Notes: generated from the sequence alone by a model not told the origin. DNA of 26,147 nt from Eubacteriales Family XIII. Incertae Sedis bacterium (GCA_031257215.1 JAIRPC010000011.1:1-26147), one strand, 5' to 3'; shown: positions 2,356 to 24,040, counted from the first letter of the stretch. Numbers and translations: made by a program.

Positions 2356-2384
2356 TTGACAATGGGGAGGTGGAAAGGTAGAAT
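2356..2384 (+). promoter_or_regulatory. sigmaA-type promoter of the ABC operon
   Basis: TTGACA (2356-2361), 17 bp spacer, TAGAAT (2379-2384). Confidence 0.75.
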
Positions 2385-2394
2385 AATTAAATAG

Positions 2395-2423
2395 ATATAA
2401 CATATATGAAAACTATGTTATAT
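2395..2423. promoter_or_regulatory. operator, perfect interrupted palindrome ATATAACATA-N9-TATGTTATAT
   Basis: Perfect 10-bp inverted repeat just downstream of the -10 box. Related copies occur at 7674, 11833 and 16020. Confidence 0.75.
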
Positions 2424-2496
2424 GCGGAGCAGGAAGAACAGCTAGAACATGAAGTATAGGGATCACAGGAACAGCAGGTAGAAGGGAAGGTGTATC

Positions 2497-4182
2497 ATGG
2501 AAAACAGATTTTGGGCAAATAGGCGGGGCGAGCTTAGGCTCGCTCGTATCCTTGCGGCGGCACTCGTGGTCGCTCTTGCGCTTGCGCTCGGGTCGTGCAG
2601 CGGCGGAGACAAGGCGCAGGGCGGTGATGGCAGCGCAGGACAGGGCGGTGACGCGGCGGCCGGCGGCACGCAGAATGCCGGTGCGGACGTAGCTGACGGC
2701 GAGCTGGTCATAGGCATCCCAGGGTCGCTTTCGTCGCTCGACGTCAACCAGGAGGCGGGCATCCTGAATTATTATGTGGCCGCCATCGTGAATGAAGGTC
2801 TGGTCAGCATCGGCAACGACGGCAAGGTCATCCCCGCGCTCGCGGAGTCGTGGAGCGACGAGAAAGGCGAGGTCTGGAAGTTCAAGCTGCGCCAGGGCGC
2901 GAAGTTTTCGGATGGCTCGCCCGTGACGGCGGACGATATCATATGGTCTATCGAGCGGGCGCAGGATCCAGAGCGTTCGCCTGGCGTGTCGATATATTTC
3001 CCGGACTATGTTAAGAGCGCGGAGAAAACCGCTGACGATGAGATCACCATCACGCTTGAGGGCTCGCACGGCGGGTTTATCTGGGCGGTGTCCAATTCCG
3101 GCGGGCTTTTTGTCAACAAGAAGGAATGGGGCGAGAAAGCGGAAGCCATCGGTTCGCAGAAAGACTTGCTGCTCGGCAGCGGTCCGTACAAGGCGGTGGA
3201 GTTCGAGCCTGGCTCCCACGCCACATTTGAAGCGTCCGGCACATGGTGGGGCGGAGATGCAAGCATCCCGAAGGTCAGATTCGACTTCATCGAGGACGAT
3301 GCCACGCGCCTGCTCGCGTTCACGCAGGGCGATATAGATTTCGCGCTCAACATTCCCGTAGACCAAGCGGAGCAGTGGGAAAAGGTGGACGGCGCGAAAG
3401 TGGAATACATAGCCGACCGCTCATACTACGGGCTGACCTTCGACCCGAATGTCGAACCCTTTGGCGATGAGCATATCAGGAAAGCTGTCTCATACGCGAT
3501 AAACGCGAAGAGCATAGTGGAGGGAAGCATACTAAAGGGCCGCGGCACGGTGGCTACAGCCATCACTCCGCCAGAGCAGCTCGCCGCCGCGCTGACACTG
3601 GATGCGGCGAAGGAAAAGCTGGGAGGCATCACTCACTACGAATACAGCATTGAAAAGGCGAAAGAGGAATTGGCGCAGTCGAGCCGACCCGATGGGTTTG
3701 AAACCACGCTGTATTATCCGGACACATACCAGAACGCCGGGAAGGCGTCGCTCGTCATCGCCGAGTCTTTGAAAGAGATAGGCATAACGCTGGACGTGAA
3801 AGAGATACCGATCGACCAATGGCTGAACGAGGTCGGCGATGGCAAGCAGGGCGTGGCTTGGATGATATATTTCCCGACCACCGCCGAGCCGGGCGAAATA
3901 GCGGGGTGGCTGCTGGATGCGGAGGGCGCTGGCACGAACCCCGCCAACTGGACTGACGCAGAAGCCGCCAAACTGGCTGCGCGGATACTGGGCGCGGAGT
4001 CCCTCGAAGCCGAAATAGAGCCTACTGTCCAGGCGAACGAAATCGCGCAGAAGCAGGCCATTTATGCCCCGGTGTGGTGGGGTCAGTCAGCCGTGGCATA
4101 CGGCGGTGGCGTGACTGTGGACGGCTACGGGTCGTTCTCGCTCATATCGCAGAACTGGCCACGGCTTTTCTCGCTGGGATGA
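2497..4182 (+). CDS. ABC transporter substrate-binding lipoprotein, family 5 (peptide/nickel; OppA/DppA-like)
   Basis: 561 aa with lipobox LALGS-C, signature VIPALAESW..WKFKLRQGAKFSDGSPVTADD and GSGPYK. Confidence 0.9.
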   Translation: MENRFWANRRGELRLARILAAALVVALALALGSCSGGDKAQGGDGSAGQGGDAAAGGTQNAGADVADGELVIGIPGSLSSLDVNQEAGILNYYVAAIVNEGLVSIGNDGKVIPALAESWSDEKGEVWKFKLRQGAKFSDGSPVTADDIIWSIERAQDPERSPGVSIYFPDYVKSAEKTADDEITITLEGSHGGFIWAVSNSGGLFVNKKEWGEKAEAIGSQKDLLLGSGPYKAVEFEPGSHATFEASGTWWGGDASIPKVRFDFIEDDATRLLAFTQGDIDFALNIPVDQAEQWEKVDGAKVEYIADRSYYGLTFDPNVEPFGDEHIRKAVSYAINAKSIVEGSILKGRGTVATAITPPEQLAAALTLDAAKEKLGGITHYEYSIEKAKEELAQSSRPDGFETTLYYPDTYQNAGKASLVIAESLKEIGITLDVKEIPIDQWLNEVGDGKQGVAWMIYFPTTAEPGEIAGWLLDAEGAGTNPANWTDAEAAKLAARILGAESLEAEIEPTVQANEIAQKQAIYAPVWWGQSAVAYGGGVTVDGYGSFSLISQNWPRLFSLG

Positions 4183-4226
4183 GCCGAGCCAATGCGAAAT
4201 AATTATATGGAATAATTTTCGGGGAA

Positions 4227-5255
4227 TTGTTTGGTATGATAAGGCAGTGGGGTGATGTGAACATTCGCGGAGCGGCTAGGTATATCGCAAAGCGCATAGC
4301 CGAGTTCGCGGTGTCGGTGGTTGCGTTGTCGTTCGTGATATTCTCGTTGCTCTATATCGCGCCCGGCGATCCGGCCAGGTCGCTCGTAGGCACGAGAAAA
4401 GCGACTCCAGAGCTTTTGGCGCGCATTAGGGAGCAGTACCATCTGGACGACCCGTTTCTGTCGCAGTACGGCAGGTGGCTTGAGGGGGCTTTTCATTTTG
4501 ACTTCGGCGAATCCATCAGGTCTGGGGCATCCGTGTCTGACACGATAGCGCCCCATGCGGTGGTCACGTTCGAGCTGGTTCTCATATCGCTCGCGATCAG
4601 CGCGGTGGTCGGCGTGGCCTGCGGCATCGCGGCGGCCAAGGGCAGGGGGAGGTTGCGCGATGGCGCTATCACGGTCGCTGCGCTCGTCGGTACGAGTGCG
4701 CCGAGCTACGCGGCGGGGCTGGTGTTCCTCTATGTGTTCGCTCTGAAGCTTGGCCTGTTCCCTATCTACGGGATAGGGAACGGGAGCGCGGCAGATGAGC
4801 TGTGGCATCTGGCGTTGCCCGCAGTCACCCTGGCCTTCGGCGTGGGTGCGCTTCTCGTGCAGATAACGCGGTCGGCCATGTTGAAAGAAGCGGCGAGCGA
4901 TTACACCGTATTCATGCGGGCTCGGGCGATATCGCCTCTGCGCGTCACGGCAGCGCAGATGAAAAACGCTTCGCCCGCCATCCTGACGAGCGCGGGGCTG
5001 GTGCTGGCGGGGTTGTTCGGATCGACCGTCCTTGTCGAGAGCGTGTTCTCGATACCCGGGCTGGGAAATCTGCTTGCCTCGTCCGTGACGTTCCACGACG
5101 TGCCTGTGGTGCAGGCCATCGCGCTGCTTTTGGCTGTCTTTATCTGCGCCGCATCCACTGCGGTGGATATCTGTGTCTACCTGATAAACCCCTCTTGGGT
5201 GCAGCGGCACGGGGTGAGGTGGAAAGGGGGCCGGCATGAGCGCATCCACGCCTAG
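4227..5255 (+). CDS. ABC transporter permease (DppB/OppB-like); start uncertain (4227 TTG, 4236 ATG or 4257 GTG)
   Basis: PGDPA motif, YHLDDPFLSQYGRWL, DFGES, EAA-loop region 'RSAMLKEAASDYTVFMRARAIS' and hydrophobic TM segments. Confidence 0.88.
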   Translation: MFGMIRQWGDVNIRGAARYIAKRIAEFAVSVVALSFVIFSLLYIAPGDPARSLVGTRKATPELLARIREQYHLDDPFLSQYGRWLEGAFHFDFGESIRSGASVSDTIAPHAVVTFELVLISLAISAVVGVACGIAAAKGRGRLRDGAITVAALVGTSAPSYAAGLVFLYVFALKLGLFPIYGIGNGSAADELWHLALPAVTLAFGVGALLVQITRSAMLKEAASDYTVFMRARAISPLRVTAAQMKNASPAILTSAGLVLAGLFGSTVLVESVFSIPGLGNLLASSVTFHDVPVVQAIALLLAVFICAASTAVDICVYLINPSWVQRHGVRWKGGRHERIHA

Positions 5256-6066
5256 GCTGCGGCAAGGCGCGACGCTGGCCTCGGCGGGATTCTGTATTTC
5301 GCTTGGCATCCTCGCGGTCGTTCTGGCATTTGTCCTGTTCCCCGAAGCTTTTGCGCCGAACGCGCTGGCACAGGATGTGGCGCATGGTGGCCTGCCCGCG
5401 CTCTCCTCAGGCCATCCCCTCGGCACGGATGCCCTAGGGCGTGATGTCTTGAAGCTGCTTATCGCGGGCTCGCGCAGTGCGCTCGCCGGCCCGCTTGCCA
5501 TCGCCGCCGGCTCTATGGCGATAGGGCTTCTGCTAGGTGGGATAGCCGGATGGTACGGCGGCGCGGCAGACTGGATCATATCCAGATACGCGGATCTTAC
5601 GCTGTCCATGCCGTCGCTGCTGCTCGCTATCGTCGCGGCAGGCATCATCGGCGGTGGTTACTGGGTCAGCGTTTTGATAATGGTCATCCTCTATTCGCCG
5701 TTCGACATCAGGCTGGTCAGATCGGCGGTCATGCAACAGAAAGGTATGGCGTACATAGAGTCAGCGCGGCTGCTCGGGCTAGGTGCGCGGCGCATACTGG
5801 TGCGCCACATATTCCCCAATGTGACGCTTGTCATATTTGTGAATTTCTTCCTGAACATAGCGTACGGACTCGTTTCCATGTCCTCTCTATCGTACCTCGG
5901 CCTCGGCGTGTCCCCAGGCGCGGCTGACTGGGGTCGGCAGATATCGGACGGACGCGCGTTGCTGTTCGACAATCCGGCCTGTGCGCTCAGCGCTGGCGCG
6001 GCAATAATAATAACAGCGGTTGCGGTGAATATGGTGGGAAGACAAATAATGGAGAGAAGCCTGTGA
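5236..6066 (+). CDS. ABC transporter permease (DppC/OppC-like)
   Basis: HPLGTDALGRD, EAA motif YIESARLLG, LSYLGLGV..ADWG. Overlaps the upstream permease. Confidence 0.9.
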   Translation: MSASTPRLRQGATLASAGFCISLGILAVVLAFVLFPEAFAPNALAQDVAHGGLPALSSGHPLGTDALGRDVLKLLIAGSRSALAGPLAIAAGSMAIGLLLGGIAGWYGGAADWIISRYADLTLSMPSLLLAIVAAGIIGGGYWVSVLIMVILYSPFDIRLVRSAVMQQKGMAYIESARLLGLGARRILVRHIFPNVTLVIFVNFFLNIAYGLVSMSSLSYLGLGVSPGAADWGRQISDGRALLFDNPACALSAGAAIIITAVAVNMVGRQIMERSL

Positions 6067-7541
6067 TAAATCTGTCGGTGAAAAACTTAAAGGTGGGAAT
6101 TGGCGGTGCTGATATACTGGACGTGCCGGCATTTTGTATCGGAGGCATTGCCGAACATGCGCCGCGCATCGGCATAGTCGGTGAGTCTGGCAGCGGCAAG
6201 ACCATGCTCGTCAGGTCGCTCATGGGCCTGCTGCCGGCTGGCGTATCCGTCAGCGGCAGCTATGCGATAGACGGGATTGGTTTTAGCCTGAACGCCAAGG
6301 AGCGGGAGTGGCGTGGAGTCAGGGGGGCGCGGCTCGGTATGGTCATGCAGGATCCGTTCACGGCGCTTGACCCGCTAAAAAAATGCGGTCGGCAGATATT
6401 GGATGGCGTTCCGAAAAGCTCGCGGGCTTCGTTCGACACGCGGGCCGCTCTCGCCGAGGTCGGGCTTGCGGCGGACATCGCGGGCAGATACCCCCGAGAG
6501 CTTTCGGGCGGGCAGCGGCAGCGCGTGGTCATCGCCGCCGCGCTTGCCACGGAGCCGCAGCTTCTTATCGCGGACGAAGCCACCACCGCGCTTGACGTTA
6601 TTACACAAAAGGGCATACTCGACCTGCTTGACGAAATCAGGGAAAGGCGCTCCATGCCGTTCGTGCTTATCACGCACAATATCAGGCTGGTTTATCAGCG
6701 GACGGATATGCTCATCGTGATGGACGGGGGGCGCATCGTGGAGACTGGCCCGACTCGCGAGGTGATAGCGGATCCGCAGAGCGCATATACCCGCGCACTC
6801 ATCGAGGAGGACAGGCTCCTGCGCGTGAGCGCATACCCCGAATACCGTGTAGGCGGGCCCGTAATACTGAAAGTGCAGAACGTGGAGAAAAGCTTCGGCG
6901 CAGTCAAGGCGCTGCGCCGCGTGGACATAGAGGTATGTGAGGGCGAGATAGTTGGCATAGTCGGCGAGTCGGGCAGCGGCAAGACCACGCTGGCGCGAAT
7001 CGTGGCGGGGCTTGAGAGCGCCGACGGTGGCGATGTGAAATTCTTCGCTGAGGGGACTCCTAAGATCGTGTTCCAGGATCCGTATTCGTCGCTGAACCCC
7101 GCGCACACCGTGCGCTTCGCGATAGAGGAAGCTCTGGCGGCTTTCGGAAGGCCGCTGTCGGAGCTTTCGGAGATAATGGATCTGACCGAGTTGGATGATT
7201 CACTGCTGGATCGCAGGCCCGCAAAGCTATCTGGCGGCCAGCGTCAGCGCGTGGCCATCGCGCGCGCCCTCGCGACTCACCCGAGCCTCATCGTCTTCGA
7301 CGAATCCGTGTCCGCGCTCGACATCGCGACGCAGAACAGGATACTTGGCATGATAGAGCGGCTGCGCGGCGAACGGCAGCTCGCCGTGCTGTTCATCACG
7401 CACGACCTCTCGGTGGTGCGGATGCTCGCGGGCAGGATCTACGTGATGCACGAGGGGCGTATCGTGGATTCAGGCTCGGCCGAGCATATCTTCGAGGATT
7501 CAAAAGCGGGGTACACGAGGGCCTTGGTAAGTGCGTCGTAG
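6063..7541 (+). CDS. ABC transporter ATP-binding protein with two fused NBDs (DppD/F-like)
   Basis: Two Walker A (GESGSGKT), two signatures (LSGGQRQR), two Walker B (LIADE, IVFDE) and two ITH H-loops. Start overlaps the previous stop (GTGA). Confidence 0.92.
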   Translation: MINLSVKNLKVGIGGADILDVPAFCIGGIAEHAPRIGIVGESGSGKTMLVRSLMGLLPAGVSVSGSYAIDGIGFSLNAKEREWRGVRGARLGMVMQDPFTALDPLKKCGRQILDGVPKSSRASFDTRAALAEVGLAADIAGRYPRELSGGQRQRVVIAAALATEPQLLIADEATTALDVITQKGILDLLDEIRERRSMPFVLITHNIRLVYQRTDMLIVMDGGRIVETGPTREVIADPQSAYTRALIEEDRLLRVSAYPEYRVGGPVILKVQNVEKSFGAVKALRRVDIEVCEGEIVGIVGESGSGKTTLARIVAGLESADGGDVKFFAEGTPKIVFQDPYSSLNPAHTVRFAIEEALAAFGRPLSELSEIMDLTELDDSLLDRRPAKLSGGQRQRVAIARALATHPSLIVFDESVSALDIATQNRILGMIERLRGERQLAVLFITHDLSVVRMLAGRIYVMHEGRIVDSGSAEHIFEDSKAGYTRALVSAS

Positions 7542-7629
7542 GTGGCGGCGATTGCCTGCATCGAAGCCGCCGACTCCATTTTTTCGGGCCATTTCCAATA
7601 AACATTAAAAGGAAACTTAAAAAACATGC

Positions 7630-7658
7630 TTGACATATATGCAAACCTGTGATATAAA
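7630..7658 (+). promoter_or_regulatory. sigmaA promoter (copy 1 of a triplicated promoter cassette)
   Basis: TTGACA, 17 bp, TATAAA with extended TG. Sequence TTGACATATATGCAAACCTGTGATATAAA. Confidence 0.8.
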
Positions 7659-7673
7659 TTACTAGAATATATG

Positions 7674-7700
7674 TATAACATATATGTGAAGTATGTTTTG
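7674..7700. promoter_or_regulatory. operator copy (TATAACATA-tatgtgaag-TATGTTTTG)
   Basis: Same half-site and 9-bp spacer as 2396-2422, 15 nt after the -10 box. Confidence 0.7.
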
Positions 7701-7762
7701 CGAGAAAGGGGTTTGCGGATGGCTGTACGAAAATTAGAGATTCCCATATACGGACGATGTAC

Positions 7763-7804
7763 AATCCCGCCGAGCCAGGGCTGATGTCCTGGCGCGGCGG
7801 GTTT
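7763..7804 (+). other. strong GC hairpin in the 5' leader (possible attenuator or terminator)
   Basis: CCCGCCG(7766-72)/CGGCGGG(7795-7801) plus GCCAGG/CCTGGC, followed by TTTGCCGATTTT. Confidence 0.4.
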
Positions 7805-7837
7805 GCCGATTTTGCACAGCCGTCGGCTGACGAAGCA

Positions 7838-7985
7838 AATCAGTTATCGCAGGCGAATAAATAAGAAGGAACGGCTCAACTCCGACATGCAATCAGGTGA
7901 ACCGTTCCAGCGCAGCCCTAAGACCGCATAATCATTATAGCATAATTTTGCTTGTATGCGGTCTCGGGAAAGAAAGGAGAACGAC
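7838..7985 (+). ncRNA. candidate structured cis-regulatory 5' leader, copy A
   Basis: Aligns with 11937-12087 and has two conserved stems with a compensatory change. Not matched by eye to any known riboswitch class. Confidence 0.5.
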
Positions 7986-11732: not shown

Positions 11733-11784
11733 TGAAAAACAGGAAATAAATACAGCGGCATGAAAACCTGGCCTGCACACCCAC

Positions 11785-11813
11785 TTGACATATATGCGAA
11801 CCTGTGATATAAA
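11785..11813 (+). promoter_or_regulatory. sigmaA promoter (cassette copy 2)
   Basis: TTGACATATATGCGAACCTGTGATATAAA, one mismatch to copy 1. Confidence 0.8.
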
Positions 11814-11832
11814 ATAACGGAAAGGTATCTTG

Positions 11833-11859
11833 TATCACATATATGTTAAGTATGTATTA
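11833..11859. promoter_or_regulatory. operator copy (TATCACATA-tatgttaag-TATGTATTA)
   Basis: Same motif and spacing, 19 nt after the -10 box. Confidence 0.7.
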
Positions 11860-11936: not shown

Positions 11937-12087
11937 AATCAGTTGTCGCAGGCAGATCAAACAAATAGGGAACGGCTCAACCCCGACGTGCAATCAGTGT
12001 GAGCCGCTCCGCCGCAGCCCGTGGGCCGCATACATATTATAGCATAATTCGGCTTGTATGCGGCTTCGGGAAAGAAAGGAGAACGAC
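11937..12087 (+). ncRNA. candidate structured cis-regulatory 5' leader, copy B
   Basis: Homologous to 7838-7985. Stems GGA(A)CGGCTCA/TGAGCCG(C)TCC and GGGCCGCATAC/GTATGCGGCTT. Confidence 0.5.
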
Positions 12088-15940: not shown

Positions 15941-15973
15941 TCGGAAAAAATTTTAATTATTTTCATAACATTC

Positions 15974-16002
15974 TTGACATATATGCGAACCTGTGATATA
16001 AA
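15974..16002 (+). promoter_or_regulatory. sigmaA promoter (cassette copy 3)
   Basis: TTGACATATATGCGAACCTGTGATATAAA, identical to copy 2. Confidence 0.8.
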
Positions 16003-16019
16003 TATCATTGAAGTTCGTA

Positions 16020-16046
16020 TATAACATATATGCGAAGTATGTATTA
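16020..16046. promoter_or_regulatory. operator copy (TATAACATA-tatgcgaag-TATGTATTA)
   Basis: Same motif, 17 nt after the -10 box and adjacent to RBS GAGGAG. Confidence 0.7.
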
Positions 16047-16060: not shown

Positions 16061-18370
16061 ATGCAGGTTAACTACTATAATAATAGAGGGCAGAGGGGCG
16101 CGTTGGCGGCTGTGCTGGCTTTGGCGCTGATCGCCGCCTCGGTGCTCGCGCCCGGCGCACCGTCCTGGCTGCCCTTTGCGGCGAGCGAGTCCCATGCCGC
16201 CAGCGGGTCCGGTATCGCCGCGCCCTATCCGTGGAGCAAGACGGCTGCGGCTACGACGGGCGACTATATCGCGGACGTATATAGCGGCATATCCAAGGGC
16301 GGGCATGTGTTTGAGGACGTGACGGTGGACAGGCTTGCCGACGTTCTCAGCGCGGAGGGCGACTACTATGTCGTGTTCGCAAGCCCCATCAAGGACACGG
16401 CGCAGAGGGTGCTTGCCACCATCAACGAGCAGGCCAAGGCGGCGGGCGTCACGAAGATCTACCATTTCAACCCCGTCCTAGACAACAAATACCTCGACAT
16501 CACAAGCGCGGACCCGAGCATAGCGAGCCTGGGCGTGAGCACCACGACAAACTACGCCAACGCGACCAATGCGCCAGCAGGCGCGGCAACCCTGGAACAC
16601 CGCATAGGCACGATCCAAACCTATATCAATTATTTCTTCCCCAACGACGAGGCGGGCGATATCCTCCGCGCCTACAAGTCCTCGAACACGCTGCTGTTCC
16701 GCTTCCATAAGGGCAGCCACACCGATCTGGCGTCCGAGGCCGCCATCAGCGCGACATATCAGCTCAAACCCGCCGATATCGTCGGGGGTTACAGCAAGGC
16801 GGCGCAGGCGGCGAAGATCGCGGGCGTGTTCAGGGACAGCGAGGGCGCTATCGTCAAGGGCGATGTCCGCACGGACTACGATTTCTTCGAGCGCGCGTAC
16901 AGGGGCCAGCTCCCCGGCGAGGATGCCATCTCGGATGCGAATTTCACGAGCGGCGCGGGCTTCAATGTCAAGTCGCTGACCTTCCCCGCCGCGTTCGACC
17001 TGCTGAACTCCCCCGGCGAGCACGCCATATTCTTCGGAGAGGTGGGCTGCGGCAACACGAAAGCGACTCTTGGCTGGGCGGCGAAGCGCGCGAAGGCCTA
17101 TAACAGGACGATATACTTCGTCGACGGCTCGCTCGGCGGCTCGGTGCGCTTCAAATACGGGGAAGATATAGACGCGCAGCTCGCGCAGACCTCGAACGCC
17201 TGGATCAACATCCGCCTTGGGCAGCGCACCAACGGCGCTGTGCCGTCGGGCTACGCGGGCGTCGGGCATCTCTACGGCGCGCTGTTCAGCTATTTCGGCA
17301 GCGGCATCAACACGGAGGACTGGTCGCAGAGCGGGCGGTCCGTGTTCTATTACGAGAACGGCATCAATGCCGACACAGGCACGCCGACGAACCGCGCATA
17401 CGGCACAGGCGCTTCGGAGGCGGGGCCCTTCGACGCGCCGCGCTTCCAGTACCCGTTCCTGTTGTCCTACAACAAGGGCTTCGACCAGCCTGTCACGGTT
17501 TCGACCACCGCCATCCAGTGGGGCGAACAGAACGGTGCGCCGTGGCTGACCGAGTATATGCTCGGCGTGAGCCAGGTGAACGCGATCCACGCGTACGGGT
17601 GGCAGCTTGGGGACGCCGTTCCCGTCACCATTGCGGGCATAACAAACGCGTCCACCGCCAAGCTCCATTTCGACGGGCTTACAGACTATGACAGGATATT
17701 GAATCCCGCATACATCAAGTCGGTGCGCCAGGCCCAGGCGGCGGACGAGGGCATAGAATACGACGATGGAACTGGCGACAACAATAACAATAACAACGAC
17801 ACGGTTCAGTCGGGTGCGCCGAAGGCCTTTGCCACAGCGCCCGCGCCGAGCCTCGTCGGGGAGGCCGTGGTCGGCAACACCCTGGGCGTCAAGGCGGGCG
17901 CGTGGAGCGACAGCCCCGCACTCAGCTACCAATGGTACCGCGAGGGCATTGCGGTGGCGGGCGCGACAGGCTCGATCTACACGCTGTCAAAGCGGGATAT
18001 CGGCAAGCTGATACAGGTCGCGGTCAAGGCCACAAAGGCCGGCTTCCAGACAACTGAGCGTATCTCCAAGGTCAGCGCATCGGCCCGAGCCAAAGGCCTG
18101 TTCGCGGGAATTACTTCAAATTCTGCCAAAATAACCGGAACGGCTAAGGTGGGCAAGACGCTGAAAGCCAAGGTGGTCGGGGTTTCCCCGAGGTTCACCG
18201 CCAAATACAGGTGGTACGCGAACGGCAAGGCCATCAAGGGCGCGACCAAGGCGAGCTTGAAGCTGAAAAAATCGCTGAAAGGCAAAAAAATCACGGTCAC
18301 AGCGACATTGAGCAGAGCGAACTATGTGAAAGCAACCGTTGTTTCCAAGGCAAAGAGGGTGAAGAAATGA
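16061..18370 (+). CDS. secreted tandem thioredoxin-like protein with two C-terminal Ig-like (QWY..G..I.GAT) repeats; no peptidase domain
   Basis: Signal peptide and blocks homologous to the M1 fusions (KIYHFNPVLD, FGEVGCGNT, YYENG, QYPFLLSYNK). Poly-Asn linker and Lys-rich repeats. Confidence 0.75.
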   Translation: MQVNYYNNRGQRGALAAVLALALIAASVLAPGAPSWLPFAASESHAASGSGIAAPYPWSKTAAATTGDYIADVYSGISKGGHVFEDVTVDRLADVLSAEGDYYVVFASPIKDTAQRVLATINEQAKAAGVTKIYHFNPVLDNKYLDITSADPSIASLGVSTTTNYANATNAPAGAATLEHRIGTIQTYINYFFPNDEAGDILRAYKSSNTLLFRFHKGSHTDLASEAAISATYQLKPADIVGGYSKAAQAAKIAGVFRDSEGAIVKGDVRTDYDFFERAYRGQLPGEDAISDANFTSGAGFNVKSLTFPAAFDLLNSPGEHAIFFGEVGCGNTKATLGWAAKRAKAYNRTIYFVDGSLGGSVRFKYGEDIDAQLAQTSNAWINIRLGQRTNGAVPSGYAGVGHLYGALFSYFGSGINTEDWSQSGRSVFYYENGINADTGTPTNRAYGTGASEAGPFDAPRFQYPFLLSYNKGFDQPVTVSTTAIQWGEQNGAPWLTEYMLGVSQVNAIHAYGWQLGDAVPVTIAGITNASTAKLHFDGLTDYDRILNPAYIKSVRQAQAADEGIEYDDGTGDNNNNNNDTVQSGAPKAFATAPAPSLVGEAVVGNTLGVKAGAWSDSPALSYQWYREGIAVAGATGSIYTLSKRDIGKLIQVAVKATKAGFQTTERISKVSASARAKGLFAGITSNSAKITGTAKVGKTLKAKVVGVSPRFTAKYRWYANGKAIKGATKASLKLKKSLKGKKITVTATLSRANYVKATVVSKAKRVKK

Positions 18371-19149
18371 GGATAACGGCACGGAGCATGCCTGTGCGCA
18401 TACTGGCTATCGCGGTGAGCGTGGCTGTCGCGCTGGCGCTTGGGACGGCGGCGCAGGGCCAGAGCCGCTCCTTTGCGGGCGCGGCCGAGGGCTGGCCCTA
18501 TACCGCGGCCAAGGTCGGAGACGGGTGGCAGTGGACGTTCACCGAGGCGTGTGAGCTCGAAGACGGCAACACGATCCCGGCGGGCACGGTGATAGAGTAT
18601 TCAGACAACGGCTACGACTTGGAGGACTGCGACGGCAACGGCTACGACGATCACACGGTCCCGCCTGTCCCCGTCCCGTGGTACGGCGTTTTCGACGGCA
18701 CCAAGACCGACAGGATACCCGATGGCTGGGACGGCTATACCCGCGACTACGAATATTATTTCCCGTACAGCAAGCCGCCCGCCAACAAGGGCGACAACAA
18801 TAACAATAACAACAAGGTTGTCGGCGAGAAGCCGGCAGGCAAGGACACGGGCAGCCAGGCCAAGGCCGCCGCGAAGAAATTCGCGAAGTCCCCGAAGCCC
18901 GCGATAACGGGCAAGGCGCGGGTAGGCAGCACGCTGAAAGCCAAGGCGGGCGCGTGGAAGCCGAAGCCGAAGCTGAGTTATCAATGGTACGCGAACGGCA
19001 AGGCCATCAAGGGCGCGACCAAGGCGAGCCTGAAGCTGAAAAAGGCGCAGAAGGGCAAGCGGATCAGCGTCAAAATAACGGCGAAAAAGACGGGCTACAA
19101 GGCGGTGTCAAAGCTTTCGGGCAAGACCGCCAAGGTGAAGCCCGCGTAG
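18367..19149 (+). CDS. secreted acidic protein with EDCDGNGYDDH motif and one Ig-like repeat
   Basis: ATG 18367 overlaps the upstream TGA (ATGA coupling) and is followed by a signal peptide. The ORF-track start at 18211 lies inside the previous gene. Confidence 0.75.
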   Translation: MRITARSMPVRILAIAVSVAVALALGTAAQGQSRSFAGAAEGWPYTAAKVGDGWQWTFTEACELEDGNTIPAGTVIEYSDNGYDLEDCDGNGYDDHTVPPVPVPWYGVFDGTKTDRIPDGWDGYTRDYEYYFPYSKPPANKGDNNNNNNKVVGEKPAGKDTGSQAKAAAKKFAKSPKPAITGKARVGSTLKAKAGAWKPKPKLSYQWYANGKAIKGATKASLKLKKAQKGKRISVKITAKKTGYKAVSKLSGKTAKVKPA

Positions 19150-19190: not shown

Positions 19191-21308
19191 ATGAGTAAGG
19201 CAAAGAAAATCGTGAATAGGCTTGCGTGCGCACTGCTTGTGGCGGCGCTGGTGGTCGGGGCTTCCGCGGCGGTGCCGGGCGCACAGAGCTTCCTTGGCGC
19301 GCGGGCGGACGCGGCGAACCCGACTCCATACCCTTGGAGTCCCAGGGCGGCGACGCTCGACTATATAGATGATGTCTATGACGGGATTTCGGGGCCAAGC
19401 GTGTTCGAGGATGTCACGGCGGAGCGGTTGCTCGACATCCTGAGCAGCGCGGGCGATTACTACATATTGTTCGGCGGGCCGCAGAACGCTTCGACCCAGA
19501 AGATCATTGGCGATATCGCCAGCGAGGCGGGCGAAGCGCCTGGCATCACGAAGATCTACCACTTCAACCCGCTTCTGGACGGCTACCAGTTGGATATCAC
19601 GAAGACCGATGGCGTTGGGCTCTGGGCGGGCGGACACCGCGGCGATATGAAGCTCGAAAAGCTACACGATGTGTGGACGGATATCGTCGGGCTGCTTCCG
19701 CCAGGCGTTGACTCCGAGGTGGCGGACTACGACTCGGACGACACCCTGTTATTCCGTTTCCATAAAAACGCGCGGACGGATCTGCCCGCGCAGACATCCG
19801 TCCCAGCCACGTACACGTTCTACGCGGAGGATGTGGACTGGTATGACGAGGGTGACGACGCGGACTCGATAGCGGATGTTTTCGGGCCGCCATCCTCGGT
19901 GCGCAGCGACTACGATTTCTTCAAGCGCGTGTACAACGGCAACGCTACCTTCTTCAACCTGAACGGCGGGAGGGGCGCGACCGCGAACAGGACGGGCAAG
20001 GCCGAGGCGATCATCAGCGATTCGGTGTTCGGCGCGAGCGGCGCCGGGTTCACGCTCCACCAGGTCACGCCGCAGGAGCTGTTCAACGTGCTGAACGCGC
20101 CCGGCGAGCACGCCATCCTGTTCGCGTCGGCTCCCTGCCACAACACGCAGGCCATAGTCGGCGAGGTAGCGAAGCGCGCCAAGGCGAACGGCTTCAACGG
20201 CAAGGTCTATGTCTACGACCCCGCCCTCGGCGGCGCGACGATATGGGGGACGGGCGCGCAGATCGACACGGTTAAGTCGAGCGCGTCCACAGGCGGGCTG
20301 TACACTAGGAACAGCAACTACAATTTCAGTTATATTTATGCCAATATTGTTAGTTATTTCAAACAGTTCGTAACAGAGAACTATACGAAGCGCGAGAGCC
20401 GCATAGACTATTACCCGAACGGCGATATCAGCAGGCCGAAGGTCGCGGCTGACCCGTGGTCGGGCGCGGCGCAGAAAAGCGCGATCAGGCTGCAAGTGCC
20501 GTTCCTGCTCGGCTACGACAAGTCGAAGGCCGCGCCTGTGGTGAAGCGGTGGATCCACCAGAAGAATGGGCTTAGCACATACAGCGAATACATGCTAGAC
20601 CTGACGTTTGTGCAGGGCACGGCGCTGGCGCGGGCGCTGCCGGTCGAGGACGGCAAGGCGGGCAACGACAGCGTGGATACGGATGGCTTGCAGGCGGTCG
20701 AATTCGCCGCCGAAGCGGTCAGGTCGCTCGACAATGTGTTGAAGCCGGGGCTCGCCGCGCCCGTCGTACACAGCTTCACGCGAGCCCCGTCCCCCAAGAT
20801 AGCGGGATCCGCCGCCGTCGGCAGGAAGCTGACCGCCGCGGCGGGCGCACTGAGCCAGGCGCCGAGCGTTTCCTACCAATGGTATGTAGGAGGCAAGGCC
20901 GTCAAGGGCGCCAGCTCCTCGGCGTACAAGGTCAAGAAATCCGACCTCGGCAAGAAAATCAAGGTGGCCGTGACGATATCGCGCACGGGCTACAAGAGCG
21001 TAACAGCGGCCTCGGCGCAGACCGCCAAGGTGGCCAAGGCGTTCGCGAAATACCCCGCGCCGAAGATCAAGGGCACGGCCAAGGTGGGCAAGACGCTGAA
21101 AGCCGCTATCGGCAAATGGAGCCCGAAGCCGACGAAATTCCAATACCAGTGGTACGCGGACGGCAAGAAGATAGGCGGCGCGACGAAGTCCAGCCTGAAA
21201 CTGAAAAAAGCCCAGAAAGGCAAGCGCATAACGGTACAGGCGACGCCTGTCAAGAAGGGCTACGAGAAATACTCGGTGGTTTCCAAGGCGACGAAAAAGG
21301 TGAAATAG
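19191..21308 (+). CDS. secreted tandem thioredoxin-like protein with two C-terminal Ig-like repeats (paralogue of 16061..18370)
   Basis: Signal peptide from ATG 19191 (GAGGT upstream). PYPWS, KIYHFNPLLDG, FASAPCHNT, YYPNGD, QVPFLLGYDK. Confidence 0.75.
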   Translation: MSKAKKIVNRLACALLVAALVVGASAAVPGAQSFLGARADAANPTPYPWSPRAATLDYIDDVYDGISGPSVFEDVTAERLLDILSSAGDYYILFGGPQNASTQKIIGDIASEAGEAPGITKIYHFNPLLDGYQLDITKTDGVGLWAGGHRGDMKLEKLHDVWTDIVGLLPPGVDSEVADYDSDDTLLFRFHKNARTDLPAQTSVPATYTFYAEDVDWYDEGDDADSIADVFGPPSSVRSDYDFFKRVYNGNATFFNLNGGRGATANRTGKAEAIISDSVFGASGAGFTLHQVTPQELFNVLNAPGEHAILFASAPCHNTQAIVGEVAKRAKANGFNGKVYVYDPALGGATIWGTGAQIDTVKSSASTGGLYTRNSNYNFSYIYANIVSYFKQFVTENYTKRESRIDYYPNGDISRPKVAADPWSGAAQKSAIRLQVPFLLGYDKSKAAPVVKRWIHQKNGLSTYSEYMLDLTFVQGTALARALPVEDGKAGNDSVDTDGLQAVEFAAEAVRSLDNVLKPGLAAPVVHSFTRAPSPKIAGSAAVGRKLTAAAGALSQAPSVSYQWYVGGKAVKGASSSAYKVKKSDLGKKIKVAVTISRTGYKSVTAASAQTAKVAKAFAKYPAPKIKGTAKVGKTLKAAIGKWSPKPTKFQYQWYADGKKIGGATKSSLKLKKAQKGKRITVQATPVKKGYEKYSVVSKATKKVK

Positions 21309-22667
21309 ATGAATGTAGATGTCCTGTCCGTAGTGGCGTTAGTGGTAATAATAGCTCTTTTTATAATAATATTCCTGCTCAGAAAGCGCGGCGTGGATTT
21401 CACCTTTACGGTGCTGGGCGCCCTGGTGGTGGGCGTAGTGTTCGGCGTGCTTTTCAACGGGCATACGGGGTGGATCATGCCCATAGGGAAGATATATGTA
21501 ACGGTGCTTTCCGCGATAGTCATGCCGCTGGTGATAGTCTCGATACTGTCCAGCGTGACCTCGCTCGGCTCCGCCAAACAGCTCAAAGGCATAGGCGCGA
21601 GGTCTGTGCTGTGGCTGCTGCTCACGAACGCCGTCGCGATAGCGCTGGCCATCGGGTTCGGGCTGACCTTCGGCGTGGGCAAAAATTCCTACCTGTCGAT
21701 AGAGGGCGTTGACGCCGCCAATTTCGAGGGCACGTTGAAGAGCTTTTCCGAGGTGCTGATAGGCTTCTTCCCGCAGAACGTGGTGTCCGACGTAGCGGAA
21801 GACAGGATCATCCCCGTCATCCTGTTCTCCGTGCTGATAGCCGTGTCCTACGTCCTCGTGCGCCAGGAAAAGGGCGAAAAGGTAGCCGTGTTCAAGCAGT
21901 TCGTCGAAGCGGTCAAGGATATCGTCTACAAGGCTGTCGGCTTCATAATAGAGCTGACGCCCTACGCCGTCCTCGCGCTGGTCGCGACCGCAACGTCCAA
22001 CGGCATGAACCGCAGCGGCATGATCTGGTCGCTCATAGTCCTTTTGGTCATATCGGTAGTCGCTATGGCGATAGACCTCTGGGGCGTGAACTACGTGCTT
22101 GTAAAGGTGTTCGCGGGGCTGCCGCCACTGAAATTTTTCAGGAAGCTCATACCCGCGCAGGTGATAGCGTTCTCTACGCAGTCGAGCGTGGGGACTCTGC
22201 CCGTGACCACGCGCATACTCCAATCGGAGGTGGGGGTCAGCCCCAAGGTGGCGAATTTCACCGCGCCGCTCGGCACGACGATAGGCATGCCCGGCTGTGC
22301 GGGGATATGGCCGATACTGGTGGCGATATACGGCATACACGGGCTGGGCATCAACTACTCCCTGGCCGACTACGCGATACTGGGCATCATGGGGCTGTTC
22401 GTGTCCATAGGCGTGGCGGGCGTTCCGGGCACCGCGACGATAGTAACGGCAAGCGTGCTGACCGCGGTAGGCCTGCCGCTTGAAATAATGGTGCTGACCA
22501 TCCCGATAGCCGCCATAGCGGACACCGCCAGAACCGCGACCAACGTAACGGCGGCGGCCGTGGCCTCGGCGATAGTGGCAAGGGGCGAAAGGGTGCTTGA
22601 CGAGGATATATTCTTCGGAAGAAAAACCTTCGTAGCCGCCGGCACAGGAGGGGATGCCGCGGGATGA
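21309..22667 (+). CDS. dicarboxylate/amino acid:cation symporter (DAACS family), TcyP/L-cystine-transporter-like
   Basis: AFSTQSSVGTLP, GTTIGMPGCAG, GVAGVPGTA, DTARTATNV. Extra N-terminal TM followed by LRKRGVDFTFTVLGAL, as in TcyP-like members. ATG directly follows the upstream TAG. Confidence 0.85.
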   Translation: MNVDVLSVVALVVIIALFIIIFLLRKRGVDFTFTVLGALVVGVVFGVLFNGHTGWIMPIGKIYVTVLSAIVMPLVIVSILSSVTSLGSAKQLKGIGARSVLWLLLTNAVAIALAIGFGLTFGVGKNSYLSIEGVDAANFEGTLKSFSEVLIGFFPQNVVSDVAEDRIIPVILFSVLIAVSYVLVRQEKGEKVAVFKQFVEAVKDIVYKAVGFIIELTPYAVLALVATATSNGMNRSGMIWSLIVLLVISVVAMAIDLWGVNYVLVKVFAGLPPLKFFRKLIPAQVIAFSTQSSVGTLPVTTRILQSEVGVSPKVANFTAPLGTTIGMPGCAGIWPILVAIYGIHGLGINYSLADYAILGIMGLFVSIGVAGVPGTATIVTASVLTAVGLPLEIMVLTIPIAAIADTARTATNVTAAAVASAIVARGERVLDEDIFFGRKTFVAAGTGGDAAG

Positions 22668-22683
22668 GAGCGGGAACAGGAAT

Positions 22684-22735
22684 GGGTCAAGCTTCCGCCA
22701 TTGAGGCACTGAGCCTGGCTCAGGGGAAGCGACCC
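22684..22735. other. compact three-way-junction-like intergenic structure
   Basis: GGGTC/GACCC and GCTTCC/GGAAGC close two hairpins, GCC-attga-GGC and CTGAGC-ctg-GCTCAG. Confidence 0.35.
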
Positions 22736-22771
22736 AGTTGAGTATATAATGTAGGAAAGAGGGCAGGAATA

Positions 22772-23914
22772 ATGAAAGTTATTGAAAAAAATATTGGCAG
22801 AGAAAGCAAGAACGGCGTCGCGGCAAGCCCACGCGGGGGCAGGGCGGCCCGGCTTTGCATCGCCGTAGCATTGTCCGTGTCCGTCGCTTTCGCGTTTGGC
22901 TTCGGCGCGGCGGGCGGGCCTGATGTGTACGCGGCCGACTATGAGAGGTGGGAGGACTGCGATTGGGACGGGTACGACGACCATACGGGCGTGAAAGTGC
23001 CGTGGGTCGGCTTCGACGGAACGCGCGGCGATACGCCCGCGGGCCCCTCGCCAAACTCGCAGACGGGAAAGAAGAAAGCCGAGGAGGAAAAGAAGAAGGC
23101 CGAGGAAGCCAAGAAGAAAGAAGCAGCGAAGAAAGCCGCTGAAAAGAAGAAAAAGGAAGCCGCCGCGAAGAAGAAGGCCGAGGAAGCCAAGAAAAAGGCG
23201 GCTGCTGAGAAAGCGGCGGCCGAAAAAAAGGAAGCCGAAGCGAAGAAAACCGATAGCGCGGAGGGCTCTGGCGACTCGGACGCTTCTGAGAGCAAAAAGG
23301 CGGCCAAGACATCAAAGGCGAGCGCTACCGCTTCCGCTGTGGCGAGCGAGCCGACGGAGACCGAAGCTATCGTGGAGACGGAAACGCCGCTGTCGGGCGA
23401 TATAGCGGAGGCGGAGGCAGTGCGCGAAGCCGCCATACTGGAAGCCCCCGGCGAGATCGAGGTCAGCGGCGCGGAGGGCGGCGCGCTCTACGCGGGAGGC
23501 AAGATAACCGTCAAGGGCACGGGCTTCTATGGCAACGTGGCGGGTATCGAGATACAGCTGCAATCCACGCCAAAGACACTGGGCACTGTCGCGTCCGACG
23601 CGGACGGAAGCTTCCAAGCGTCGTTCGCCCTGCCGGAGGGCGCGGCCACGGGAAGCCACAGCATAGTGGCGCTGTACAACGGCGCGGAGCTGGTTCGCGC
23701 CGAGGTAGAGCTTCGACCCGCGCCCGCGAACAGCTTCTGGAAAGCTCTGAGCGTGGGGCTGGCGGGCGGCAACGCCGAGCTGCTGCCGGGTATTCTGATC
23801 TTCGTGGTGTTGGTGGCCATAGCCCTGGCGGCATTGCTGGCGGGGGATGTCCGCAGGCGCAGAAGCGCGAGGGCGGAAAAAGCCGAGAAGAGCTACGCGT
23901 ATGCCGGGAAATGA
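22772..23914 (+). CDS. surface protein: signal peptide, EDCDWDGYDDH motif, Lys/Glu/Ala-rich helical stalk, Ig-like domain, C-terminal TM anchor
   Basis: (KKKAEEAKKKEAA)n low-complexity stretch, 'GGKITVKGTGF..LGTVASDADGSFQASFALPEGAATGSHSIVA' beta domain, hydrophobic LLPGILIFVVLVAIALAALLA followed by an Arg/Lys tail. Confidence 0.8.
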   Translation: MKVIEKNIGRESKNGVAASPRGGRAARLCIAVALSVSVAFAFGFGAAGGPDVYAADYERWEDCDWDGYDDHTGVKVPWVGFDGTRGDTPAGPSPNSQTGKKKAEEEKKKAEEAKKKEAAKKAAEKKKKEAAAKKKAEEAKKKAAAEKAAAEKKEAEAKKTDSAEGSGDSDASESKKAAKTSKASATASAVASEPTETEAIVETETPLSGDIAEAEAVREAAILEAPGEIEVSGAEGGALYAGGKITVKGTGFYGNVAGIEIQLQSTPKTLGTVASDADGSFQASFALPEGAATGSHSIVALYNGAELVRAEVELRPAPANSFWKALSVGLAGGNAELLPGILIFVVLVAIALAALLAGDVRRRRSARAEKAEKSYAYAGK

Positions 23915-24035: not shown

Positions 24036-24040
24036 CCCAC

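Follow-up and report, generated by a model that had tools for sequence, protein, structure and literature searches.

A conserved three-gene module of thioredoxin-fold protein, DAACS symporter and Cys-tipped anchor, with a candidate role in sulfur amino-acid uptake

Genes at the locus

The window, meaning the whole stretch of 26,147 nucleotides that was analysed, comes from a Family XIII MAG (1.1 Mb, 58% complete). Its features are given in Table 1.

Table 1. Positions and properties of features in the window
Feature	Position	Strand	Properties
GCS2-family (glutamate-cysteine-ligase-like) gene	233..1630	+	context only; no conservation with the module
C39-like papain-fold peptidase, 208 aa	1703..2329	-	divergent from ABC operon
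ABC operon promoter	2356..2384	+	TTGACA-17-TAGAAT, 11/12 consensus matches
Operator copy (ACATA-N9-TATGT)	2400..2418	+	exact ACATATATGNNAASTATGT match, downstream of ABC promoter
Family-5 solute-binding lipoprotein	2497..4182	+	lipobox LALGSC; Pfam SBP_bac_5 E 2e-73
Two ABC permease genes	4227-5255, 5236-6066	+	Pfam BPD_transp_1 E 1e-23, 3.5e-26
Fused double ABC ATPase, Opp/Dpp/Nik type	6063..7541	+	Pfam ABC_tran, two stretches, E 1.3e-48
P1 promoter	7624..7696	+	TTGACA 7630-7635, TG-extended TATAAA 7653-7658
P1	7986..11732	+	signal peptide, X (WCPYT), two-domain-type M1 aminopeptidase, fn3, Lys-rich tail
P2 promoter	11779..11855	+	TTGACA 11785-11790, -10 at 11808-11813
P2	12088..15783	+	signal peptide, X (WCGDS), M1 aminopeptidase, fn3
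P3 promoter	15968..16042	+	TTGACA 15974-15979, -10 at 15997-16002
P3	16061..18370	+	signal peptide, X (GCGNT, Cys330), Ig-like Lys-rich repeats
Small secreted protein, 260 aa	18367..19149	+	signal peptide, 'LEDCDGNGYDD..VPVPWYG' tip-type motif, one Ig-like Lys-rich repeat
P4	19191..21308	+	canonical X (PCHNT), 77% identical to a relative
DAACS/SDF symporter	21309..22667	+	distinct subfamily, TcyP-like TM7 motif
Cys-tipped anchor	22772..23914	+	signal peptide, invariant tip, long charged helix, Ig-like domain, C-terminal TM helix

Four secreted paralogues, P1 to P4, were recognized in a preliminary description of this DNA. They have in common a domain of ~500 aa, here called X, and a profile of this shared N-terminal region matches all four at E 1e-115 to 1e-172, with no further match in the MAG. 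Their true starts are those in Table 1; in the ORFs at 7956 and 12058, the first ten codons correspond to leader and RBS. Two paralogues were thought to be fused to M1 aminopeptidases, which is borne out for P1 and P2 by Pfam (E 8e-23 and 1e-19) and by an intact zinc site, HEXXH-X18-E (HEQLH..E in P1, HEYAH..E in P2). The GXMEN exopeptidase motif is not kept, and reads G-Y-S-L-E-T in P1 and G-A-V-E-T in P2. The closest solved relative of these M1 parts (E 2e-23), and the nearest solved two-domain M1, is PDB 6a8z/6iff (‘zinc metalloprotease, putative’). It resembles them in the zinc site, in the G-x-x-E-T variant of GXMEN (A-L-E-T at this place) and in lacking the C-terminal ERAP-type domain. 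However, the M1 parts of P1 and P2 are fused behind X and followed by fn3 and, in P1, by the Lys-rich tail.

P4 adjoins the symporter gene, as X does in single-X genomes, and the symporter start immediately follows the P4 stop codon (TAG, 21306-21308), in agreement with the coupling of symporter and X array proposed earlier. The gene for the small secreted protein is absent from the preliminary description and overlaps the P3 stop in an ATGA.

The GCS2-family gene reported upstream is present. Its HMM support is weak (TIGR01436 E 5.6e-7, 28 bits vs a cut-off of 463; Pfam E 0.06, 13 bits vs 21), and its ESM-Atlas look-alikes are GCS2 clusters (score 0.98, TM 0.98). By contrast, the class II GATase placed just upstream proved to be a minus-strand gene for a C39-like peptidase (Pfam Peptidase_C39_2 E 0.002; C39-like Atlas clusters, score 0.99, TM 0.94). 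For the plus-strand ORF at 1673-2359, no Pfam family matches at E up to 10, and its translation looks unlike a protein.

Promoters and operator

The operator ACATATATGNNAASTATGT occurs in four exact copies, at 2400, 7678, 11837 and 16024, while the reversed control pattern has no match in the whole genome. The ABC importer and three of the X genes, P1 to P3, all have this operator upstream. The earlier observation that the importer shares the operator with the X genes is correct, and the copy at 2400 lies downstream of the ABC promoter. Inverted copies overlie the -35 boxes. The P1 promoter lies between an inverted copy that covers the -35 box (7624-7642) and a direct copy (7678-7696), and these repeats are the repeat families D16 and D8. 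Similarly, the P3 promoter has an inverted copy at 15968-15986 and a direct copy at 16024-16042, and the P2 promoter has a copy at 11837-11855 and a weaker inverted one at 11780. P4 lacks its own promoter and operator and is part of the P3 operon. About 25 loci in other Clostridia have the operator CATATAWGNNWAGTATG immediately upstream of an X, X-M1 or SDF gene, with 46 matches compared with 5 for the reversed pattern.

Three genes are linked across two phyla

With the symporter as query, we retrieved 80 loci in named genomes, which span two phyla. The X profile matches the gene adjoining the symporter in 72 of these 80, and the remaining 8 are cut by contig ends. X and the Cys-tipped anchor are locked to one symporter subfamily in all 72 loci that reach far enough. 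With X as the starting query, the order X-SDF-anchor was recovered in five of five contigs. The carriers are soil actinobacteria (Cellulomonas, Agromyces, Nocardioides, Solirubrobacter) and anaerobic Clostridia (Anaerocolumna, Eubacterium, Family XIII). At one locus (L006), a gene of the glutathione peroxidase family is found nearby.

When all neighbours were clustered, X, the anchor and the symporter were the only families common across loci. Conservation with transporters had been anticipated: this holds for the DAACS symporter, but not for the ABC importer or the GCS2 gene, and neither these two nor the supposed GATase are supported as general parts of the system. The ABC importer belongs to the regulon only in this genome, via the shared operator, and it and the GCS2 gene are lineage-specific additions. 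X-M1 fusions recur in independent proteins, elsewhere directly upstream of X-SDF-anchor. They are restricted to a minority of lineages, and are also lineage-specific additions to the module. No CcdA/DsbD-type electron donor is linked to the module, and net disulfide reduction is therefore left unexplained.

SAM-IV riboswitches and cysteine-desulfurase-like neighbours

In Cellulomonas and relatives, the orthologous symporter-anchor-X operon is preceded by a SAM-IV riboswitch (RF00634). In two Cellulomonas genomes it is found about 215 nt ahead of the start of the symporter gene and scores 110.3 and 104.5 bits (loci L066 and L064), compared with a gathering threshold of 38. Searches with nhmmer found SAM-IV in 13 of the 80 loci, all from actinobacteria, and directly upstream of the symporter in 8 of the 13. 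Searches at gathering thresholds of the window and of the entire length of 10 type-A loci gave no riboswitch, nor did a search of one upstream region that allowed E up to 1.

In 11 loci the module contains or adjoins a class-V aminotransferase gene, which in 5 of them lies behind its own SAM-IV. For the two such proteins scanned with NCBIfam, the top matches are all cysteine desulfurases (SufS 283-301 bits), suggesting that this neighbour is SufS/CsdA-like. The SAM riboswitches are as good an indication of methionine as of cysteine. The sulfur and cystine theme was originally drawn only from the functions of the protein families. It is now backed independently by SAM-IV, the SufS-like genes, a TcyP motif in the symporter and the active site of X, and a role in scavenging sulfur amino acids of the cystine type is supported.

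The X domain

X has no Pfam, NCBIfam or PDB sequence match. The tandem thioredoxin-like region that had been described is confirmed: the N half aligns with the C half (hhalign probability 98%, E 2.8e-13), and a thioredoxin fold is found in both halves of an AF2 model of P3 residues 50-560 (pLDDT 84, pTM 0.90). By VIA-align, domain 1 matches 3iv4 (Z 9.3, rmsd 2.7 A, 109/112 residues) and BrxA (Z 9.2), and domain 2 reaches Z 7.0 and 6.7. The model thus places X in the thioredoxin-fold superfamily (beta-alpha-beta-alpha-beta-beta-alpha). X additionally carries a beta-rich insertion and C-terminal helices.

As had been noted, each X domain has one Cys. It is located in the second repeat, is invariant in 81 of 81 sequences, and has no counterpart in the first repeat, which has zero Cys. 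It occupies the canonical thioredoxin active-site position (motif W-C-H-N-T), at the N-terminus of helix 282-297 and after strand 272-277 in the AF2 model. The site is C-x-x-T/S, with Thr or Ser at +3 in all 81 sequences. A CxxC dithiol site can be ruled out, because only the first Cys is present, and X is a monothiol protein. Asp355 is also invariant (81/81). Pro465 (79/81) lies just before a strand in the loop R-L-Q-x-P-F-L-x-x-Y-N-K, which by sequence resembles the cis-Pro loop of thioredoxin (I-P-T-L-L-L-F-K-N-G). X is a secreted, wall- or membrane-attached protein with two thioredoxin folds and one nucleophilic Cys in the second. Given this single Cys and the cis-Pro-like loop, X could form a mixed disulfide with a thiol or disulfide substrate, and would not complete a two-electron reduction by itself.

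Foldseek returned only multi-thioredoxin proteins such as ERp44, PDI and ERdj5, all as weak matches (E 2.5e-3 and above, TM about 0.15), and the top match is zinc-bound ERp44. Like X, the monothiol (CxxS/T) proteins of the PDI family such as ERp44 have several tandem thioredoxin folds and one active-site Cys with Ser or Thr in place of the resolving Cys, which permits mixed disulfides and not full reduction. However, X shows no sequence relation to them, differs in its domain packing, and is bacterial and extracellular, with the W-C-H-N-T motif, the insertion and the C-terminal helices. Membership of the PDI/ERp44 family, which would call for recognizable sequence homology and the domain order a-b-b'-a', was rejected. 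In monoderm bacteria, the surface-tethered, extracytoplasmic thiol proteins of thioredoxin fold include pneumococcal Etrx1/2-CcdA-MsrAB2, ResA and MdbA. Etrx1/2, ResA and MdbA are single-domain CxxC dithiol proteins that are fed by CcdA/DsbD-type carriers and serve protein repair or folding. X resembles them in its fold, location, cell-surface tether and Gram-positive setting, but is a monothiol, has no linked electron carrier and has an amino-acid symporter as its obligate neighbour.

E. coli TcyP is described as part of a cystine/cysteine shuttle through which reducing thiols reach the outside of the cell, and C-x-x-T resembles the motif of GPx. X might accordingly be a surface thiol peroxidase or thiol-repair protein in envelope redox defence, with the symporter in such a shuttle for external thiols. 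The GPx-like monothiol site, the TcyP-like symporter motif and the gene near L006 would fit this idea. Yet the SAM riboswitch reports on nutrition and not on stress, clustering of neighbours revealed no linked cysteine exporter or reductase, many carriers are strict anaerobes and the M1 fusions would be left unexplained. We therefore consider redox defence quite unlikely.

The symporter

The symporter belongs to the DAACS/SDF family (PF00375; E 1.2e-90, 304.8 bits vs a cut-off of 27.9). It is 67% identical to its Anaerocolumna orthologue and 29% identical to E. coli TcyP over 398 residues. It retains the Asp for the amino group and the Arg for the distal carboxylate of the amino-acid site, residues that would suit an alpha-amino-acid substrate carrying a distal carboxylate. 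TcyP (YdjN/YhcL), a cystine/sulfocysteine:cation symporter of the same Pfam family, has in common with it conserved Asp/Arg/Asn in TM8, as well as a one-residue insertion and the motif G-x-x-G-C-A-G-(I/L)-(W/Y)-P in TM7. The insertion and motif are absent from GltP, DctA and SstT among the four E. coli DAACS paralogues compared. Nevertheless, the locus symporter is a distinct subfamily that is equally distant from GltP, and it always adjoins two extracytoplasmic partner genes. To our knowledge, TcyP has none.

The overall score is about the same with GltP (132 bits) and TcyP (134 bits), and the symporter is not grouped with TcyP in a small tree, so glutamate or aspartate could also be its substrate on these grounds. 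The module might then serve general nutrition, harvesting these amino acids or peptides, with X as a non-redox, binding or chaperone-like presenter whose Cys is structural or a metal ligand. The retained Asp/Arg pair is used for aspartate, the M1 fusions and the regulon shared with a peptide-type ABC importer point to peptides, and calsequestrin and many PDI-family b domains are redox-inactive thioredoxin folds. However, SAM-IV control and the SufS-like neighbours point to sulfur and not to Glu/Asp, the Cys of X is invariant at the catalytic position beside a cis-Pro-type loop, and most lineages do not have M1 fusions. This explanation is unlikely in our estimation.

The anchor and the ABC importer

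The anchor gene is a conserved third component of the module, and its family has no Pfam or NCBIfam model. The mature N-terminus is an acidic loop with a single Cys inside a DxDxDG-type sequence, and the tip reads E-D-C-D-x-D-G-Y-D-D..V-P-W-x-G-x-D-x-T-x-G-D. Twelve of its residues, including the Cys, are invariant among 22 anchor sequences from two phyla. AF2 models the Ig domain at pLDDT above 90 and the tip at 43-59. The motif ‘EDCDxDGYDD..VPW’ is common to the anchor and the small secreted protein, and the latter matches the Anaerocolumna anchor in this motif at E 5e-8. Type-B anchors have other Cys-acidic N-terminal motifs, with CxxC-like spacing.

The family-5 importer is complete, with an SBP_bac_5 binding protein, two permeases and Opp-type ATPases. 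For the binding protein, scores against NCBIfam equivalog cut-offs are 111/600 bits for NikA, 104/594 for GsiB, 88/947 for OppA and 63/1005 for DppA, and the ATPase matches (YejF, NikD, NikE) are also below cut-offs. As no score reaches its cut-off, identity with GsiABCD, NikABCDE, Opp or Dpp was rejected.

The main alternative in the preliminary description was metal acquisition, in which Cys/Asp-rich tips and X would bind Ni, Zn or Cu and the family-5 ABC system would import it. The top matches of binding protein and ATPase are indeed NikA, NikD and NikE types, but they are far below cut-offs, with GsiB and OppA about equal, and we found no positive HMM support beyond them. The DxDxDG-type loop with its Cys, the CxxC-like type-B tips and the zinc-bound ERp44 match might also suggest metal. 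On the other hand, the ABC system does not recur with the module, and a DAACS protein with an intact amino-acid site, SAM-IV and SufS-like genes do not fit. We regard a metal role as very improbable.

Proposed function and comparison with known systems

Much of the cysteine in the environment is tied up in disulfides or peptides, and the free form is reactive. We judge the chance to be slightly better than even that the three-gene surface module serves to import an amino acid that contains sulfur, with cystine or disulfide-held cysteine as the most likely candidates. For the thiol chemistry and the role of the tip, we infer that X would capture or exchange cysteinyl disulfides at the cell surface, the Cys of the anchor tip would act as a resolving or relay thiol, and the symporter would import free cystine or a cysteine-disulfide. 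In many actinobacteria, the co-located SufS-like enzyme could desulfurate the import and so feed methionine and SAM synthesis. In the Family XIII MAG, the module is expanded to four X paralogues, two of which, fused to M1, would trim peptides, and it shares one operator with the peptide-type ABC importer.

A more specific version, which is possible but which we would not expect to hold, is covalent delivery. Here the DAACS transporter has obligate thiol partners, and mixed disulfides on X are relayed to it by the anchor as a ‘swinging arm’ composed of TM helix, Ig domain, long charged helix and an invariant, Cys-bearing calcium-loop tip. We know of no transporter family with covalent substrate delivery for sulfur amino acids, and of no DAACS member with extracytoplasmic partners. 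TRAP and TTT are conceptual analogues, in that a secondary transporter is encoded with a dedicated extracytoplasmic partner, as in the module. However, their transporter and partner families are unrelated to those described here, and in the module the coupling seen is that of gene linkage.

The set of X, symporter and anchor is undescribed and widely conserved, and X and the Cys-tipped stalk are two protein families without a Pfam or NCBIfam model. The SAM riboswitch and the cysteine-desulfurase-like gene make the hypothesis testable, and several carriers are cultured. Bacterial acquisition of cysteine from the surroundings is only partly understood. If confirmed, the module would extend sulfur assimilation by a new extracellular step, provide the first partner-dependent DAACS transporter known to us, and give functions to two uncharacterised families and an operator.

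A three-gene module around the symporter

We found that the X domain, a secreted domain of about 500 amino acids of which the window encodes four paralogues (P1 to P4), the SDF (DAACS family, PF00375) symporter and the anchor, a Cys-tipped membrane stalk, form an undescribed, tightly linked three-gene module. Downstream of its single X gene, Anaerocolumna encodes a symporter with 67% identity to that of the window and then a protein without a Pfam match, and this order recurs in four more contigs. With the symporter as query, relatives were located in 195 stretches of about 185,000 species genomes, and the best 80 of these 195 loci were fetched. In 72 of the fetched loci, a neighbouring gene matches the X profile; in the remaining 8, the contig ends on the relevant side. 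After every neighbouring ORF was clustered, the only families common to the loci were X, the anchor and the symporter. Literature searches returned no description of this gene set.

The module occurs in two gene orders. Type A (X-SDF-anchor) is found in Lachnospiraceae, Eubacterium, Family XIII, Propionibacteriaceae and Coriobacteriales, and type B (SDF-anchor-X) in Cellulomonas, Agromyces, Nocardioides, Solirubrobacterales, Conexibacter and others. The linkage of X to DAACS symporters that the preliminary description anticipated is thus conserved among these best loci, but its other expected partners are not: a dpp-type ABC importer is directly upstream of the symporter in one other locus, and neither the GCS2 (glutamate-cysteine-ligase family) gene nor the C39-like gene was found in the other loci.

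Gene content of the window

The source MAG comprises 1.1 Mb and is 58% complete, and the window is its contig C14. The encoded YlqF is 78% identical to proteins of "Clostridiales Family XIII" MAGs, and the genome is therefore that of a high-GC member of the Clostridia and not of an actinobacterium. On the same ground, an assignment to Coriobacteriia, the source of some X relatives, is rejected.

Features of the window, with M1 denoting the aminopeptidase domain
Feature	Position	Strand
GCS2-family ligase	233-1630	+
C39-like papain-fold peptidase	1703-2329	-
Family-5 ABC importer: lipoprotein binding protein, two permeases, fused double ATPase	2497-7541	+
Stretch in the P1 5′ leader	7838-7985	
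P1: X + M1 + fn3	7986-11732	+
Stretch in the P2 5′ leader	11937-12087	
P2: X + M1 + fn3, built as P1	12088-15783	+
P3: X + Ig-like repeats	16061-18370	+
Ig-like Lys-rich repeat, C-terminus of P3	18212-18299	
Small secreted protein, 260 aa	18367-19149	+
Ig-like Lys-rich repeat, small protein	18985-19072	
P4: X + Ig-like repeats	19191-21308	+
SDF symporter	21309-22667	+
Anchor, membrane-anchored, 380 aa	22772-23914	+
Three tandem 40-nt repeats	23906-24036	
rplS, ylqF, rnhB	3′ of the anchor gene, in that order	

The four X paralogues, the M1 fusions and the symporter had all been recognized in the preliminary description, but the small secreted protein was overlooked. A "class II GATase" assigned to a plus-strand ORF (1673-2359) must be withdrawn: this ORF gave no Pfam match even at E up to 10, its translation does not resemble a protein, and the gene on the opposite strand is the C39-like peptidase.

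The Ig-like Lys-rich repeats at the C-terminus of P3 and in the small protein share 88% DNA identity, far above the rest of the two proteins, which suggests recent gene conversion or duplication. The tandem 40-nt repeats share 86-90% identity and are found between the anchor stop codon and rplS.

X is a monothiol tandem-thioredoxin domain

The X regions of the four paralogues have no match in Pfam, NCBIfam or PDB sequences, and the ESM Atlas gave no usable match. The family is rare and patchy. Clustering at 50% identity gives 135 clusters among 1.8 billion representatives, and a search of 398 further sampled genomes from the class of the source MAG detected no member; some relatives come from Coriobacteriia.

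The N- and C-terminal halves of X are homologous to each other in a profile-profile comparison (98%, E 2.8e-13). An AlphaFold2 model built with 31 sequences is confident (pLDDT 84, pTM 0.90), and both halves match thioredoxins and the bacilliredoxin BrxA (domain 1, Z 9.3 and 9.2; domain 2, Z of about 7). Foldseek returned multi-thioredoxin proteins alone (ERp44, PDI, ERdj5, calsequestrin), all weakly, and among AFDB clusters the family's own unnamed members rank first, followed by thioredoxin/PDI entries.

Our alignment of X domains comprised 81 sequences, the four of the window and 77 taken from named genomes. The sole Cys (Cys330 in P3) is invariant within a W-C-H-N-T consensus, with Thr or Ser at +3 in 81/81, and the model places it at the N-terminus of a helix after a strand, the position of the thioredoxin nucleophile. 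Asp355 is also invariant. Pro465 is present in 79 of the 81, within an R-L-Q-x-P-F-L-x-x-Y-N-K loop that, judged from sequence, we take to resemble the cis-Pro loop of thioredoxin. In the first repeat, the position matching the Cys is occupied by Pro or Gly. Because it has a single invariant Cys, Thr or Ser at +3 and no Cys in the first repeat, X is a monothiol thioredoxin-fold protein lacking a resolving Cys, and is predicted to be able to make mixed disulfides. Among the window copies, P4 alone has the canonical C-H-N-T; the variants are C-P-Y-T (P1), C-G-D-S (P2) and C-G-N-T (P3).

Surface attachment of X seems to vary, with CWB2, Flg_new, SH3, LPXTG, dockerin and TM fusions. The dockerin domain (precomputed Pfam PF00404) is in P0013, an X relative from Coriobacteriales. 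In Coriobacteriales loci (L007, 9029-9913), two X genes flank a small TM-anchored protein that lacks the EDCD motif.

The anchor and its tip

The anchor consists of a signal peptide, a tip motif at the mature N-terminus, a linker, a confidently modelled Ig-like domain and a C-terminal TM helix. Its tip carries an invariant Cys within the motif E-D-C-D-x-D-G-Y-D-D-x-T-..-V-P-W-x-G-x-D-x-T-x-G-D, 12 residues of which do not vary among 22 sequences that represent two phyla. The segment D-C-D-x-D-G, with the invariant Cys inside, fits the calcium-loop pattern DxDxDG. In the window's anchor, the linker is a long charged helix, and the tip is modelled at low confidence. When the P4 X domain was modelled as a complex with the tip (residues 55-100), the score was 0.02, which speaks neither for nor against binding.

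Type-B anchors are homologous to those of type A through their Ig and TM parts, and have N-terminal Cys-acidic motifs of the form W-V-D-G-G-D-D-x-x-C-L-x-D-D..C..C or D-V-C-D-L-C-S..A-C. In Agromyces, X itself carries the Ig and TM part as a fusion. The small secreted protein of the window bears a copy of the type-A tip motif.

The symporter has a TcyP-like signature

The residues that bind the amino group and the distal carboxylate in solved structures of aspartate transporters (Asp, Arg and Asn) are all retained in the symporter. Of the four E. coli paralogues, only TcyP, the cystine importer, has the same one-residue insertion and the sequence G-x-x-G-C-A-G-(I/L)-(W/Y)-P, which replaces N-M-D-G-T-A. 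Overall similarity is equal (TcyP 134 bits, GltP 132 bits), and a small DAACS tree with these paralogues leaves the symporter unplaced because of long branches. The designation "cystine-type" is therefore supported by the shared signature and by context, not by orthology.

A conserved operator in Clostridia

The promoters of P1, P2 and P3 are near-identical (TTGACA, 17 nt, TG-extended TATAAA). Each has a downstream copy of an operator, a 19-bp palindrome ACATA-N9-TATGT, and in the case of P1 and P3 the -35 box is covered by a good inverted copy. The window holds four exact and two inverted copies; a reversed control pattern occurs 0 times in the whole genome. The ABC operon has its own promoter with one downstream copy, which bears out the earlier proposal that it shares the operator of the X genes. 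In this genome, a peptide-type ABC importer has been drawn into the operator's regulon.

In Anaerocolumna, Family XIII and other Clostridia, about 25 loci have the same element, CATATAWGNNWAGTATG, 30-350 nt upstream of an X, X-M1 or SDF gene. Since it recurs upstream of module genes, with 46 matches in 1.53 Mb versus 5 for the reversed pattern, the module carries a conserved putative operator in Bacillota.

A seventh operator-like palindrome, ACATATATGAGATATATGT, occurs on another contig of this MAG (C139, 221-239; locus L017), 145 nt upstream of the gene of an OmpR-family response regulator (384-1067), which is paired with a histidine kinase gene. This pair is a candidate regulator or a further member of the regulon.

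The P1 and P2 transcripts have long 5′ leaders (~300 nt from promoter to start) that are about 85% identical across their last 165 nt, with a hairpin GACCGCAT...ATGCGGTC immediately 5′ of the RBS. Rfam has no match for the leader, and none of the fetched loci contains a relative; it therefore reflects either a duplication of recent date or a cis-regulatory RNA private to this genome.

SAM riboswitches in Actinobacteria

Several actinobacterial lineages have SAM-riboswitch control and cysteine-desulfurase-like neighbours at the module. In two Cellulomonas genomes, Rfam places a SAM-IV riboswitch about 215 nt before the symporter start (110 and 104 bits; cut-off 38), and a profile made from these two copies detected it in 13 loci. 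It is directly upstream of the symporter in 8 of the 13. In two Nocardioidaceae loci, it precedes a class-V aminotransferase gene that itself precedes the symporter, and in three others it precedes such a gene beside the module. This aminotransferase family is present in 11 loci. For two members scanned against NCBIfam, the best matches are all cysteine desulfurases, led by the SufS subfamily at 283-301 bits (below the cut-off of 475) and followed by CsdA. The window has no Rfam match at E up to 1, and type-A loci have no riboswitch near the module (10 whole loci at gathering thresholds; one Anaerocolumna upstream region at E up to 1).

Agromyces cerinus (L085, 14612-14724) and Eubacterium xylanophilum (L053, 19613-19719) each have a TPP riboswitch within a few kb of the module; in Agromyces it is directly 3′ of the X gene.

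Lineage-specific additions

Several metagenomic proteins are X-M1 fusions, among them X-M1-X and X-M1-X-M1 arrays, and two named MAGs encode such fusions as well. On a metagenome contig (L102), X-M1 is directly upstream of X-SDF-anchor, beside a secreted papain-family peptidase. The M1 parts have a HEXXH-X18-E zinc site and G-x-x-E-T in place of GXMEN; the closest solved relative of those in the window is a two-domain M1 enzyme (6a8z/6iff).

The L102 peptidase (791-3934), a surface protein of 1047 aa with a Peptidase_C1 assignment, is encoded directly upstream of the X-M1 gene, a further hint of extracellular proteolysis feeding the module.

The ABC binding protein of the window scores below every NCBIfam equivalog cut-off, and its Nik, Gsi, Opp and Dpp matches are all weak. 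ABC ATPase genes near other loci are generic, and a Dpp/Opp-type importer is directly upstream of the symporter in L100, a Conexibacteraceae MAG, only. There (6630-9829), a DppB/OppB-type permease gene and two Opp-type ABC ATPase genes, assigned from N-terminal sequence only, are co-directional with SDF-anchor-X-SufS-like genes.

Possible function

The module may acquire cystine or disulfide-bound cysteine. X would make mixed disulfides with substrates, the tip Cys would resolve or relay them, and the M1 fusions would trim Cys-containing peptides. We consider this specific disulfide relay unlikely. No electron donor was found linked to the module. Alternatively, the cargo may be methionine-related or acidic amino acids. 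On balance, we lean towards the broader reading that the module harvests sulfur amino acids.
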